Shown here one piece after another: positions 7,332-29,955 of a DNA stretch of 64,000 bases. Within the stretch, counting starts at the first letter, position 1. Each line of letters begins with the position of its first letter. The notes under the pieces were generated by a model. It searched no databases and was not told the origin of the DNA. It saw only the letters and a list, made by a program, of their open reading frames with translations. The position numbers were made by a program, and so were the translations under genes. This DNA comes from Bdellovibrionales bacterium (GTDB taxonomy: Bacteria; Bdellovibrionota_C; UBA2361; SZUA-149; JAGRAN01): contig JAGRAN010000032.1 of NCBI GenBank assembly GCA_020434585.1, forward strand, positions 11,013-75,012. The letters run 5' to 3'.

Positions 7332-8420
7332 TTATTGGGGAGAATTGTCGTTTGTGGCGACCTGTGTACTTCCTGGGGTTGATGAAAGCGGATCGTTTGA
7401 GCCAGGTCTGATATCTACTCTACTTTTAAATAGCTCGCGAATTCTCAGTTCCCCCGGAATAAGCTGCTCGCGTGCTAGCCAATAGTAAATTTCTTCAGCC
7501 GCAATCCGATGTCCGATTTCGTTAGGATGAAAATCGGTACCGACAATCGTCTGCATTCGGTCCAGGGGGAGTCCGAAGTACGCGGAGAGCAAGTCCAGCG
7601 TAAGAATATTTAGCTGTCTTAAAACTTGCTGCACCTTTGTATGAAGTTCGGTGAAGGGATAATTCTTGTCGAGCGGCATTCCGAAGAGGGGAAATATAAC
7701 TGCCACAACTTTGGCGCCATTGGTGGAGCCAATATCCGCGATAGATTTGAGTGCTCCGGTAAATTCGGCCCAATTCTTCTGATCGTCGAACAGTTTGTAG
7801 TAGTAATCGACGTAGGCTTGTCTTGTTTGATGATTGTGAATTCTCGTGGCGACGAAGTTTGCGAGTTTTGAATGTGACAATAGTCCTGTGCCTGTATCGC
7901 CAGAGCCCAGCTTAAAAGGATTAGTTCCACCTTTCCAAAGTCCGTGGGGTCTGAAAGGTTTGCGCTCTGGATCGTTTAAAGTAATTTCGACGATAATTAA
8001 ATCGGCACCGTCACGTTCGGCCGCGAACTTTGCACTTCTTATTTCGTGCATAGTTGAGTATCCGGGGACTCCGTAATTAAAAACTTCAGCGCGAATCGGG
8101 CTAACATTCAAATTAAGCATGCGTTCGAGTCTTTTGGGGAATGCGTCGTCGAATTGCATGTTTGGAGCGAAGGTAAACGAATCGCCGAGCACAGCTATGC
8201 GAAAAACACTGCCATCAGTATTCTTCGGTTCGATCGGATAGTCTTGGAAGAACTTCGACGCTTCGGGTTTGTAATATGCCTGCGGCCGGTCGTTTTTTAA
8301 GGTAGGAGTTCCGTCGTCGAAGGACCAAAAAGCGGCTTCGACAAGGCCGAGCACGACAAAAATAGACGCTGTGCACAAACTGATTGCGACAAGGCCGGAT
8401 TTTAAGGCTGAGTAAATCAC
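7332..8420 (-). CDS. Membrane-anchored SGNH/GDSL hydrolase family protein (paralog 1 of 4)
   Basis: N-terminal TM helix. Block I is RIAVLGDSFTF, block II Gly is NYGVPGYS, and the C-terminal DxxH catalytic block is DFHPNEIGH. Confidence 0.7.
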   Translation of the reverse strand: MIYSALKSGLVAISLCTASIFVVLGLVEAAFWSFDDGTPTLKNDRPQAYYKPEASKFFQDYPIEPKNTDGSVFRIAVLGDSFTFAPNMQFDDAFPKRLERMLNLNVSPIRAEVFNYGVPGYSTMHEIRSAKFAAERDGADLIIVEITLNDPERKPFRPHGLWKGGTNPFKLGSGDTGTGLLSHSKLANFVATRIHNHQTRQAYVDYYYKLFDDQKNWAEFTGALKSIADIGSTNGAKVVAVIFPLFGMPLDKNYPFTELHTKVQQVLRQLNILTLDLLSAYFGLPLDRMQTIVGTDFHPNEIGHRIAAEEIYYWLAREQLIPGELRIRELFKSRVDIRPGSNDPLSSTPGSTQVATNDNSPQ

Positions 8421-8621
8421 TAAACTAACACTGGTTTTTGGATGATTCCGCGCCGGTTGTTAGCCCCGGCTACCAGCGCGCGATTATATGATGAAGGGCG
8501 AATGTTTTCCAGGCCAATCCAAATTACGTCGCACAGGCAAGTTTATTGTGAATCCTGTAGCTACAGTCTGTCTATGCGCGTATAAGATACGAGAGCTTGA
8601 ACTTAGTATTGGACTGGAGCG

Positions 8622-9692
8622 ATGATCTGGAACTGGCTCGAATTTGGCTGTGTATGGATCGCTTGGTTCGGGCTTACCGGCTTTTGCGTGATTGCCGGCC
8701 GGAGCGATCTTATCTATTCAAGGCGCGTTCGCGAGTCAGTCGGCAACCTACTTTTGGTCATTTTCTCGTTTACGTTCGTGCTGTTCGCTGTGGAGAGCTG
8801 GTTTTTTATTTATCCGATTGCGGATGCCAGGATTTATAGCAAGACCGCCAGCAGATGGGGATATAAGTACTGGGGCGAGAAGAATTCGTTTGGATATAGG
8901 GACAGAGAATACACTAGAGATCGTTGTGGATCTGTTCCTTTACTCGCAGTAATCGGAGATTCGTTTGCAGCCGGATGGGGAGTCAAGGATCGCCGTGAAC
9001 GATTTGTGAATCTGATCAGAGACGCTCTTGAGCCGCAGATGGAGACGGTGCTGATCGGGGACTTAGCATGGGATTCTAAGAAAGAACTGGACGGGCTCAA
9101 GGCGTATCCGTGCAAGCCTGACGTAGTGATTCTCAGTTACTATTTTAACGATATTTTCAATGAGGCAGTGAGCCAAGGTGTGGTTGCAGCTCCTCAGCCG
9201 ACCCCGGCCCCAAAACTGCTTCGGCCCTTAGTCGATCATTTTTACCTATTTGATTTCGCGTGGACCATCTACGATCGCCGATTCGGAGGTCATAGCGGCG
9301 TAGTTGAGCTAATTGAAGCAGCGTTTAATTCGAAGGAAGTGTGGGCTGCTCACAAGCAACAACTGAAAGATATTGTGAAGTATACAAGAGACAACGAAAT
9401 AAAATTGATTACAGTAATATTTCCTGTGCTATCTGCGGTCGATGTGACAAGAAAGTTTGCGCATCAGGTAGCAGAAGTATTTGTGGAAGAGGGCATAAAG
9501 ACAATCGACTTGTCGTCTGAGCTATCGATGTATTCCCCTCGCCAGTTAGTTGTCAACGCGTTTGATAGTCATCCAAATGAATTTACCAATCGCTTAGTCT
9601 TTGAAAGCTTGAGTGAAGAACTTTTAAAATTAAAAGAAGAGAGCGCTTCTCGAGCTAGCGAGCCTCCCGCGCGATTTGTCGGTGAAATGTAG
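8622..9692 (+). CDS. Membrane-anchored SGNH/GDSL hydrolase family protein (paralog 2 of 4)
   Basis: Two N-terminal TM helices. Block I is LLAVIGDSFAAGWGV. The DxxH block is FDSHPNEFTN. Divergent from paralog 1. Confidence 0.7.
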   Translation: MIWNWLEFGCVWIAWFGLTGFCVIAGRSDLIYSRRVRESVGNLLLVIFSFTFVLFAVESWFFIYPIADARIYSKTASRWGYKYWGEKNSFGYRDREYTRDRCGSVPLLAVIGDSFAAGWGVKDRRERFVNLIRDALEPQMETVLIGDLAWDSKKELDGLKAYPCKPDVVILSYYFNDIFNEAVSQGVVAAPQPTPAPKLLRPLVDHFYLFDFAWTIYDRRFGGHSGVVELIEAAFNSKEVWAAHKQQLKDIVKYTRDNEIKLITVIFPVLSAVDVTRKFAHQVAEVFVEEGIKTIDLSSELSMYSPRQLVVNAFDSHPNEFTNRLVFESLSEELLKLKEESASRASEPPARFVGEM

Positions 9693-9700
9693 TCTTTGGT

Positions 9701-28099: not shown

Positions 28100-28142
28100 A
28101 CCGCCATGAAATCAAACTTCTGACGTTATGTCTCGTCTAAGT

Positions 28143-29285
28143 TTACTCGGCCGAGTTGTAAACCGCTTCGACCACTGCTTCTGCAGCAGCCTGATTTCCC
28201 TGTGCGGTCCAGTGACCATCGCATGCCAGGTAGAGATCATCGATATCGATCTTGTGCCTGTCCGCGTAAGCCTGAAGGTGCGGCAGCAAGTCCACTACCT
28301 CGACATTAGAATGCTGGGCCGCGAACTTTTGCAGCTCCTTAACAATTCGAAAATCATATCCCGCTTTGTGCAGTTTATCGAAGTCGGATTGTCGTGGAAT
28401 AATAAAAATAGTGAATCGCTTGTCCGGAGCAAGCTCGGCAATATTTTCGTATCCGAAGAGCAAACGCTTCAAATCCAGGTCGGAAAATCGATCATAGGTG
28501 CTTTGCAATTCTCCGCTCGATTCGGATTCGGTTGCGACGCTGTTTTTGTTGTAAATTTGTGCGCTGCGGCGGATTACGTTTAACAAATATATATTGTTAT
28601 AAAGAGTTCGTCTGACTGCTCGTGCGGTGCTAAACCCCTTAGGTTTATCTCGGTGTTCAAAATCAACTGTGTAGAACAGCTCCAAGTTTCCTGAATCGGT
28701 TTCACGCAGATAAGGTCGGTAACGACCAGGAGAGAAGTTCGACGGATTGTTGTCGCGGAAGTCGTTTGCCGGCAGATGAAACAGCAGGACGTCGCTGTGA
28801 TCGAACTTTGAGGCAAGCTCTCTGTACAGCAACCACTCCTGGGTTGAACTGAAATCCCCTGAAGTTCCGAAGTTCAACTGCTCGATGCCGGTTGCCGCTT
28901 CGACGAGGTCGGTCATCCTTTGTTCGGCGTTTACCCCGATGCCTTCAACAAAGGAGTCGCCAAGCACAACAGCTCGGCGTGCTGCGTCAGAGTGCCTGGA
29001 GCGCTCTTTGTCCCGCGCTCCATATGAGTTTGATTGATATATGGCATCGTAGCAGGGGGCGAAATGATGGGTCTCTCGGTTTGGGTAATGCCACACGCCA
29101 AAGTGTTCGTTATTGTCGCCATAAAATCTTTTAGTTGCGTCAGTTGTTGGGAAATTGCCGATGGGAATGTATCCCGCCGCTGCCGCGGCACGCACCAAAA
29201 GCTCGGCGCAAACTAGGATGAGCGCATAGACAGCGGTCATTGTCAGGCGTGGGTGCCGCTCGTACCAGCTAGTTGTTTGTGTCAT
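28143..29285 (-). CDS. Membrane-anchored SGNH/GDSL hydrolase family protein (paralog 4 of 4)
   Basis: TM helix (MTAVYALILVCAELLV). Block I is RAVVLGDSFVEGIGV, block II is NFGTSGDF, and the DxxH block is ACDGHWTAQGN. Start ambiguous: ATG at 29285 or 29240; the ORF track extends to 29327. Confidence 0.7.
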   Translation of the reverse strand: MTQTTSWYERHPRLTMTAVYALILVCAELLVRAAAAAGYIPIGNFPTTDATKRFYGDNNEHFGVWHYPNRETHHFAPCYDAIYQSNSYGARDKERSRHSDAARRAVVLGDSFVEGIGVNAEQRMTDLVEAATGIEQLNFGTSGDFSSTQEWLLYRELASKFDHSDVLLFHLPANDFRDNNPSNFSPGRYRPYLRETDSGNLELFYTVDFEHRDKPKGFSTARAVRRTLYNNIYLLNVIRRSAQIYNKNSVATESESSGELQSTYDRFSDLDLKRLLFGYENIAELAPDKRFTIFIIPRQSDFDKLHKAGYDFRIVKELQKFAAQHSNVEVVDLLPHLQAYADRHKIDIDDLYLACDGHWTAQGNQAAAEAVVEAVYNSAE

Positions 29286-29955
29286 CGTCCGCCAGGCTTT
29301 CTCTTCGCTGCATCGTGTGGATCGCAACTAAATGTGCGACCAAAATTGCAATGTACATTTGTCCAACGATCCCCTCAAGTGCAGCAAGAGTGCGTCCGAA
29401 CTCCGTCAGTGGAGCGATGTCTCCATAGCCTACGGTGGAGAGTGTAATGAAACTGAAATATAGAAAAAACGAAGTCGGTTCTGAAGGAAGACCGTTAGCT
29501 GGATCGAGGCCAGTGAAAGAGCCGGGGTTTAGCACTTCCAGCGTCATGAAAATGAAGGAAAACGAAACACCAATCAGCAAGTAAACACAAACGGAGCCGA
29601 GAATAGTATCTGCGCTTACTGTTTGCTCACGAACTAAGCGGGAAAGCATTAGGGTTGCGATAAAGGAAAAAAATGTAATCTCTACTAACAGCGTCGCAAG
29701 TAAGATAGGACGTTCCGCCACAATTGAGCTTGCAGCGATTAGCGCAACGCCAAGAAAGCCCAAGGCCGCAGCGGCAACAAAATGCTTCCGTTCTGAGCTA
29801 ACCGAATATACGCCCGCAGCCAGCAAAAGCGTGAGCGCGAAATGAAGCATATGACTTAGAGCCGGGGTTTGACGGACGATAGGTGCGAGCAGCATCACTC
29901 CGAAGAGTGCTAACAGCAGCAGTAAATATCTGTTTTTGTGGCTCAGTTTTCTCAT
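29269..29955 (-). CDS. Potassium channel protein (pore-loop cation channel)
   Basis: K+ selectivity filter TVGYGD between hydrophobic helices, with additional N-terminal TM helices. 228 aa. Confidence 0.8.
   Translation of the reverse strand: MRKLSHKNRYLLLLLALFGVMLLAPIVRQTPALSHMLHFALTLLLAAGVYSVSSERKHFVAAAALGFLGVALIAASSIVAERPILLATLLVEITFFSFIATLMLSRLVREQTVSADTILGSVCVYLLIGVSFSFIFMTLEVLNPGSFTGLDPANGLPSEPTSFFLYFSFITLSTVGYGDIAPLTEFGRTLAALEGIVGQMYIAILVAHLVAIHTMQRRESLADDDTNN

Follow-up and report, generated by a model that had tools for sequence, protein, structure and literature searches.

Four membrane-anchored SGNH/GDSL hydrolases beside glycosyltransferase genes in a Bdellovibrionales bacterium, and their possible role in the deacylation of envelope glycoconjugates

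This analysis concerns four genes, designated S1 to S4, that lie within 22 kb of one another in a 64,000-nucleotide stretch of DNA (the window) from the metagenome-assembled genome of an uncultured Bdellovibrionales bacterium (assembly GCA_020434585.1, contig JAGRAN010000032.1, positions 11,013 to 75,012). They encode anchored proteins of the SGNH/GDSL type, of 362 amino acids (S1, 7332..8420, minus strand), 356 amino acids (S2, 8622..9692, plus strand), 376 amino acids (S3, 15719..16849, plus strand) and 380 amino acids (S4, 28143..29285, minus strand), and belong to a known superfamily, as new members that are still uncharacterised, rather than forming a new kind of system. The explanation tentatively favoured here, with a probability of about 0.45, is that they are periplasm-facing deacylases that act on envelope glycoconjugates, alongside glycosyltransferases of the GT-C class and enzymes of the Wzy type.

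All four open reading frames (ORFs) had been listed in a first-pass annotation of this DNA, and all are present at the listed coordinates. Their common membership of one family was established with A2, a profile of the S3 family built from 47 homologous sequences. When A2 was searched against all of the window's stop-to-stop ORFs, only S1–S4 matched at E ≤ 10 (hmmsearch; S3 4.8e-147, S1 1.1e-15, S2 3.8e-15, S4 3.5e-9), and hhalign aligned the other three to A2 over nearly their full length, with probabilities of 99.1 for S1, 98.7 for S2 (E 2e-16) and 96.8 for S4. In S1, S2 and S4 the aligned span takes in an inserted helical region that separates block III from block V, and for S1 and S2 also the N-terminal helix, while the S4 alignment begins at residue 73. 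Two of the proteins score above the cut-off of Pfam Lipase_GDSL_2 (PF13472; 32.9 bits), namely S1 (42.6) and S4 (34.8); S2 falls below it (23.7), and S3 has no match of its own to this model, many of its homologues carrying PF13472. The three-layer alpha/beta/alpha fold of SGNH enzymes was recovered. Two of the start sites deserve comment. In the NCBI annotation S3 is KDD66_04040 (proteins of this region bear the locus tags KDD66_04040 to KDD66_04050), a protein of 356 amino acids whose start lies 20 codons downstream of the ORF start, leaving out 15719–15778 of the plus strand; this start would cut the conserved membrane helix, and the 376-residue form is supported by other gene callers and by the family alignment. 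The start of S4 is most likely the ATG at 29285, the open frame itself extending back to a TTG at 29327.

The catalytic residues of the superfamily are intact in all four proteins. Block I, GDS, is found at residues 79–81 (S1), 112–114 (S2), 121–123 (S3) and 109–111 (S4), the glycine of block II is present throughout (NAG 157–159 in S3), and the ND of block III occurs as LND 148–150 in S1, FND 175–177 in S2, LND 190–192 in S3 and AND 173–175 in S4. Block V, some 220–250 residues downstream of the GDS block in each case, reads D296-F-H298 in S1, D315-S-H317 in S2, D349-Q-C-H352 in S3 and D356-G-H358-W359 in S4. The shared architecture described in the first-pass annotation was thus borne out as regards the N-terminal transmembrane helix, the GDS block and the glycine block, whereas its C-terminal DxxH is found only in S3 (DQCH), the other three having D-x-H (DFH, DSH and DGH in S1, S2 and S4, respectively). 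Conservation across homologues follows the same residues. The S3 family shows no variation at G121-D122-S123, N157, N191-D192 and D349, and almost none at H352; among 65 S4-like members G-D-S is kept in 63–64, and G140, N174, D175 and D356-x-H358-W359 are conserved. An alignment of ten sequences that included S1–S4 showed G159 to be invariant and N191 nearly so (≥90%), these being the oxyanion-hole residues in S3 numbering. A second signature, NSxGxRD, is seen in S2 (KNSFGYRD, 87–94), S3 (TNSLGFRD, 96–103) and S4 (SNSYGARD, 85–92) and is lacking in S1. The S3 family keeps N97, G100 and R102 of this motif, about 20 residues before block I, and the S4 subfamily keeps N86, G89, R91 and D92 in 61–63 of its 65 members. 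Taken together, the Pfam, hhalign, alignment and A2 results uphold the SGNH assignment, an anchor in the membrane and the retention of the catalytic residues, and from the intact blocks it is proposed that the four genes specify serine hydrolases with the SGNH/GDSL fold that are competent for catalysis.

Each protein has a single N-terminal hydrophobic segment (possibly two in S2), which is predicted to be an anchor. The helix spans approximately residues 4–34 in S1 and residues 12–40 in S3, where it bears E34xxxR38, a pair that the S3 family keeps at the membrane-helix end as invariant or nearly invariant residues; in S4 the sequence AELLVR (27–32) lies inside the transmembrane segment. Lysine and arginine residues in the S4 subfamily average 3.03 ahead of the segment and 1.63 beyond it, and 21 members, against two, favour an orientation with the N-terminus inside and the C-terminus outside. 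The corresponding charge bias in the S3 family is weak (22 members against 15). This positive-inside bias indicates an outward-facing catalytic domain, so that it is probably located in the periplasm.

The four sequences have diverged widely. Pairwise identities are 24–28% in the longer BLASTP alignments (up to 36% over 50 residues) and 18–21% in the multiple alignment. S1 scores 82.8 bits against an ORF from Planctomycetota but only 41.6 bits against S2, and its best relatives are SGNH ORFs from other phyla (e.g., locus L090, at 2e-24). Homologues of S3 that are 40–46% identical are spread over many phyla, and S4-like genes from metagenomes share 40–68% identity across the catalytic core. As S1, S3 and S4 are each nearer to homologues from other phyla than to one another, the four represent old, separate subfamilies of one family. 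At such low identities, the genes are either very old paralogues or separate subfamilies that have been brought together. Four copies within 22 kb is unusual, given that only 4 of 80 related loci had another member of the family no farther than about 6 kb away.

The surroundings of the four genes point to the assembly of envelope glycans, a setting that the Pfam families of the neighbours and the structural relative of one of them support, as they do the earlier description of the SGNH genes as interleaved with glycosyltransferases and flagellin. Convergent with S1, with 8 bp between the stop codons, is a GT2 glycosyltransferase gene (6562..7323, plus strand, 253 amino acids; Pfam Glycos_transf_2, 4.4e-22). 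The best solved relative of its product is a dolichol-phosphate mannose (Dol-P-Man) synthase (5mlz, 4.5e-9), and it resembles polyprenyl-phosphate sugar synthases. A polytopic GT-C glycosyltransferase of the PMT_2 type (26666..28099, minus strand, 477 amino acids; 31.1 bits to Pfam PMT_2, above the cut-off) is encoded on the strand of S4, 43 bp downstream of it, which makes co-transcription of the two probable. Both closest relatives, L007 and L094, have kept this pair, which there closes a module with the order homologue of 16891–18501, homologue of 18482–20083, (rhodanese,) Wzy_C, 268-residue protein, Ser/Thr kinase, 193-residue protein, PMT_2 and S4. In the window these members are a polytopic O-antigen ligase/polymerase-type protein (21256..22965, minus strand; Pfam Wzy_C, 2e-15), a single-transmembrane protein of 268 amino acids (23143..23949, plus strand), a Ser/Thr protein kinase (23946..25913, minus strand; Pfam Pkinase, 2.5e-50) and a membrane protein of 193 amino acids (26075..26656, plus strand), the 268- and 193-residue proteins having no Pfam match. 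The Wzy_C protein has orthologues in both relatives, and the position of the kinase is conserved in both. S4 orthologues are 73% (L007) and 66% (L094) identical, the membrane enzymes of the module 48–59%, and only the 268-residue protein (78% and 71% in L007 and L094) and the 193-residue protein (77% and 69%) are more conserved than S4. The retention of 66–73% identity in S4 while neighbouring genes have fallen to about 50–60% indicates purifying selection. An S3 orthologue is present in L007 and absent from L094.

Association with GT-C enzymes extends beyond these close relatives. Neighbourhoods were scanned at about 160 related loci, comprising 80 S3-family loci from GTDB genomes and 80 S4-like loci from metagenomes; the latter were gathered with the S4 catalytic core, the N-terminus of full-length S4 being lineage-specific. 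Among the 35 polytopic proteins encoded within 3 kb of the S3-family genes, GT-C enzymes were dominant, with matches to PMT_2 (six), PMT (three), PMT_4TMC (two), TMEM260-like, YfhO, GT87 and Glyco_transf_22, counts in which several matches may fall on one protein. On one 896-kb contig (L012), the family member (P0130) is preceded by a PMT_2 gene whose end lies 4 bp away. In the independent S4-like set, PMT_2 proteins made up four of the seven closely adjacent polytopic neighbours (L128, L129, L151 and L121), a further neighbour was a Wzx-type flippase, and a Wzy_C protein was encoded 2.3 kb from another S4-like gene. By a rough estimate, inferred and not computed, adjacency to GT-C genes is several-fold above expectation and far from universal.

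From these observations a mechanism can be proposed. A single helix at the N-terminus would tether each of S1–S4 to the cytoplasmic membrane and leave its catalytic domain in the periplasm. There the enzyme would take O-linked acyl groups (in the simplest case acetyl) off an envelope glycoconjugate close to the membrane, or off the polyprenyl-linked precursor of that glycoconjugate. This glycoconjugate would be made by the products of surrounding genes, namely the Dol-P-Man-synthase-like GT2, the PMT_2-type and other polytopic enzymes, and the Wzy_C protein. Standard SGNH chemistry would apply, with the serine of GDS as nucleophile, the His/Asp of block V as general base and the Gly and Asn residues forming the oxyanion hole. 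The four diverged copies may serve different substrates or different steps; S4 would be most closely coupled to the PMT_2 gene immediately downstream, and S3 would be co-transcribed with two uncharacterised polytopic proteins.

Several points weigh against the deacylase explanation. The glycan substrate, like the hydrolase rather than transferase direction of the reaction, is something we infer. The immediate neighbours of S3-family genes are very mixed (169 Pfam families among 108 neighbours, the commonest being GT2 with five and PMT_2 with three), which rules out a universal conserved neighbour for this SGNH family, and a GT-C neighbour occurs at just 10–15% or so of loci, an enrichment and no rule. 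The predicted anchor could instead be a cleaved signal peptide. An MBOAT or AT3 gene, which would supply an acyl donor, may lie elsewhere in the genome, of which the window is a part. Finally, the top structural match of S3, CgnD, is a peptide-bond hydrolase, and the S4-subfamily profile finds its best solved relatives, over block V only, in AlgJ (2.3e-7), Bacillus cereus PatB1 (3.7e-5) and AlgX (2.5e-4).

The structural match raises the possibility that these are CgnD-like hydrolases directed at proteins or peptides, which would process a secreted or surface protein. The solved structures nearest to S3 were indeed the peptidase CgnD (8a2n) and then carbohydrate or lipid esterases. There is only marginal sequence likeness to CgnD (E 0.0096 across 50 residues), CgnD is itself cytoplasmic and very slow, genes of the kind found with peptides made on the ribosome and modified after translation (RiPPs) were absent from the vicinity in the window, and the flagellin encoded upstream of S3 is missing from the syntenic relative L007, all of which makes a peptidase role very unlikely. 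After CgnD, the best sequence and structure scores for S3 were those of carbohydrate acetylesterases and GDSL esterases. Against PDB sequences the S3-family profile matched esterases at 1e-9 to 1e-5, and AlgJ at just 0.23.

TesA-type thioesterases and lipases were also among those PDB sequence matches, and homologues are annotated as 'lysophospholipase L1-like esterase', so it could be envisaged that the four proteins are lipases or deacylases of the membrane surface, acting on lysophospholipids, on lipid A or on the acyl chains of other glycolipids in the course of envelope remodelling or of a predatory life style. A tether would place the active site near the lipid head groups, and PMT_2/ArnT-type proteins, of the kind found as neighbours, can be lipid A modifiers. 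The homologue annotations are, however, automatic, carbohydrate esterases score equal to or above lipases, and the module conserved between the window, L007 and L094 contains no genes of lipid metabolism. A role confined to lipids is accordingly considered improbable.

The usual reading of an anchored SGNH protein is that it supplies acetyl transfer in a system whose other half is an MBOAT or AT3 protein, and the first-pass annotation had drawn the comparison with AlgJ, AlgX and PatB, an interpretation that is partly supported. Under it, the four proteins would be O-acyltransferases like AlgJ/AlgX/PatB1/PatB/DltD, the acyl group crossing the membrane, being taken onto the serine and passing from there to a glycan hydroxyl, with a donor protein encoded elsewhere or represented by one of the unclassified polytopic proteins that adjoin S3. 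An N-terminal anchor with a periplasmic domain is the layout of AlgJ and DltD, S4 has D-x-H-W, S3 has the related H-Y-T-x-x-G, and the profile of the S4 subfamily reaches AlgJ, PatB1 and AlgX as given above. It is mainly for S4 that an acyltransferase role survives, owing to its AlgJ-like His block. The match is confined to about 60 residues around the D-x-H-W block (AlgJ aligns at chain residues 78–142 of 308, which correspond to the C-terminal end of S4), while blocks I–III are canonical and stand in canonical order. Pfam ALGX (PF16822) matched S4 alone, at 24.6 bits against a cut-off of 26.5 and over model positions 81–132 of 268 (52 positions). In AlgJ and AlgX the Asp/His block precedes the Ser block in the sequence. 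With a partial, sub-threshold match in one protein and a reversed block order, kinship with AlgJ/AlgX/PatB as a family could not be upheld, and in structure S3 stands closer to esterases than it does to PatB or OatA.

The earlier observation that no MBOAT partner is evident held in the Pfam scans of the window. MBOAT and AT3 proteins were absent from the ORFs scanned there (1,043–44,658 and the ORF with 12 transmembrane segments at 47,198–48,793), which cover every polytopic ORF, and from about 10 kb beyond the right window edge. At the related loci none was found among the 35 polytopic proteins near S3-family genes, in the families listed for the 108 immediate neighbours of those genes, or among ten polytopic neighbours of S4-like genes. 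The product of 16891..18501, which the first-pass annotation had put forward as a possible acyl-donor partner, gave no Pfam match and does not have an MBOAT or AT3 fold, its model matching no structure of either kind. Transfer of acyl groups by these four proteins is therefore judged unlikely.

The two polytopic proteins encoded after S3 are of interest in their own right. The gene at 16891..18501 (plus strand) starts 41 bp after S3 and specifies 536 amino acids, with about 9–11 transmembrane helices followed by a C-terminal extracytoplasmic domain, and it gave no match in Pfam or NCBIfam. A structure predicted from 21 homologues had a mean predicted local distance difference test score (pLDDT) of 92.7, and searches with this model ruled out GT-C, Wzy, MBOAT and AT3 proteins. 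In Foldseek the top matches were five entries of GGCX, the vitamin-K gamma-carboxylase (probability 0.77–0.94, E 0.04–0.4, TM-score about 0.3), with all others at probabilities of ≤0.1, and the published structures of GGCX, with about nine helices and then a beta-rich outer domain, agree with its layout. Sequence searches (Pfam VKG_Carbox and HTTM) lent no support to a GGCX/HTTM link. The model thus gives a weak but specific indication of a distant GGCX-like fold, the human carboxylase being the only full-length structural relative. The family comprises 1,829 clusters at 50% identity (E ≤ 1e-3) and is without a Pfam model; its invariant residues are N113, R124, K213, W223, H296, F307, W308 and W359, one protein of the family carries a fused DCC1-like thiol-disulfide oxidoreductase, and a homologue (P0019) is encoded by the planctomycete Candidatus Laterigemmans baculatus. 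In other phyla its members occur in glycan-synthesis loci (with GT2, GT1, Polysacc_synt_2, Asn synthase, methyltransferases and Wzy_C/Wzz/Poly_export), and no SGNH neighbour was seen for the distant homologues in the loci examined. At a Bacteroidota-like locus (L008, 7996–16676) a homologue lies between an FG-GAP/Por_Secre_tail protein and genes for two Cupin_8 proteins, two sulfotransferases and an Asp/Arg hydroxylase, a set that looks like enzymes modifying secreted proteins or glycans. L094 keeps the membrane pair without an S3-like gene, which, with the lack of SGNH neighbours among distant homologues, excludes S3 as an obligate partner. The protein is neither the acyl donor nor a dedicated partner of S3.

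The second gene, 18482..20083 (plus strand), overlaps the first by 20 bp and specifies a polytopic protein of 533 amino acids from a rare family, with 11 homologues among 5.8 billion proteins. It has no Pfam match and no PDB sequence match, and resembles GT-C enzymes just in gross layout (hhalign probability of 15 against the PMT_2 protein). Residues D31, Y35, D128, K168 and R353 are invariant in this family. Its end overlaps by 4 bp a gene for a Rhodanese-domain protein (20080..20454, plus strand; Pfam Rhodanese, 5.2e-19), and a rhodanese also follows the orthologous pair of membrane-protein genes in L007.

A wider and more speculative reading, which is given little credence at present, is that the module shared by the three genomes is an undescribed system for tailoring periplasmic glycoconjugates, built on a partnership of SGNH and GT-C enzymes. 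It could comprise 16891–18501, 18482–20083, the Wzy_C protein, the Ser/Thr kinase, the PMT_2 protein and S4, with S3 as a further member in two of these genomes. SGNH enzymes that are anchored and have an AlgJ-like His block could then be physical partners of GT-C enzymes, not of MBOAT or AT3 proteins, and within the vitamin-K carboxylase fold the family of 16891–18501 could form a bacterial branch, one that carries out membrane-embedded chemistry on envelope glycans.

Other genes of the window can be described briefly. A flagellin gene at 13729–15666 (plus strand, 645 amino acids) encodes normal N- and C-terminal helical domains and, in the variable region, seven FG-GAP_3 repeats (a beta-propeller). 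A link between this flagellin and the S3 operon, hinted at by the FG-GAP neighbour in L008, is weakened by its absence from the syntenic L007. A second flagellin gene, of ordinary size, is located at 33424–34881 (minus strand, 485 amino acids), and the SGNH/GT-C island thus lies between two flagellin genes. The gene at 11306–13300 (minus strand) specifies a Cys-rich protein of 664 amino acids with a signal-like N-terminus and a score of 25.3 bits to TraU, below the cut-off of 26.5; a homologue is found directly before the S3-like gene in L007. At 2638–4356 (minus strand) a single ORF fuses a GNAT acetyltransferase domain to a domain of the histone-deacetylase family.

The interest of the SGNH genes lies in their belonging to a large and phylogenetically wide family that has no MBOAT or AT3 gene near it in the loci scanned and that recurs beside GT-C enzymes of the PMT_2 type. 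If this pairing is functional, it would add a step of deacylation or acyl editing to lipid-linked periplasmic glycosylation, and would offer a way into the study of the numerous orphan GT-C enzymes that uncultured phyla possess. The GGCX-like membrane family may nonetheless be a more valuable lead than the SGNH genes themselves.

Comparison can also be made with several known systems. Three-component periplasmic glycosylation (GtrABC, ArnC/ArnT, CsbB/GtcA/YfhO) is one; enzymes of the Dol-P-Man synthase class supply donors to GT-C transferases, and the window likewise has a Dol-P-Man-synthase-like GT2 and a PMT_2 GT-C enzyme. A flippase of the type used by these systems was not identified in the window, to our knowledge no SGNH partner has been described for them, and a full-text search of the literature returned nothing relevant that combined SGNH with GT-C or with ArnT. 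In DltD a single N-terminal anchor carries an extracytoplasmic SGNH domain, with the MBOAT protein DltB as partner, and this layout matches that of S1–S4; none of the four matched Pfam DltD at E ≤ 0.1, and no DltB-type MBOAT is nearby. An Acyl_transf_3 domain of the OatA/OafA type was neither fused to nor adjoining the SGNH genes. The Leptospira LA_2490 and LA_2486 models of NCBIfam (cut-offs of 325 or 300 bits) gave partial matches, the best being 43.7 bits for S4, and represent distant relatives only.

AlgJ, AlgX and PatB1 are alike in having an N-terminal anchor and an extracytoplasmic domain, and share the D-x-H-W segment with S4. They differ in that the Asp/His block comes before the serine in AlgJ and AlgX, whereas in S1–S4 the serine comes first, in the canonical order; in that block V of S1 and S2 is of the ordinary H-P-N kind, without D-x-H-W; and in that AlgJ, AlgX and PatB1 work with an MBOAT protein, a neighbour that the present family lacks in the neighbourhoods scanned. 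CgnD, the crocagin leader peptidase, shares with S3 extra elements beyond the SGNH core, but it is not membrane-anchored and belongs to a RiPP gene cluster, whereas S3 is anchored and has almost no sequence similarity to it. Correspondence in catalytic layout is seen with esterases such as the CE3 enzyme 2vpt, the acetyl-mannan esterase 6hfz, AlAXEase (7ddy) and Axe2 (3w7v), which have the canonical block order and the full Ser/Gly/Asn/His set found here. Known carbohydrate and GDSL esterases are soluble or secreted proteins of about 200 amino acids, whereas S1–S4 have a membrane helix, and the family is further distinguished from them by an N-terminal beta subdomain with NSxGxRD and by a helical insert of about 100 amino acids between blocks III and V.

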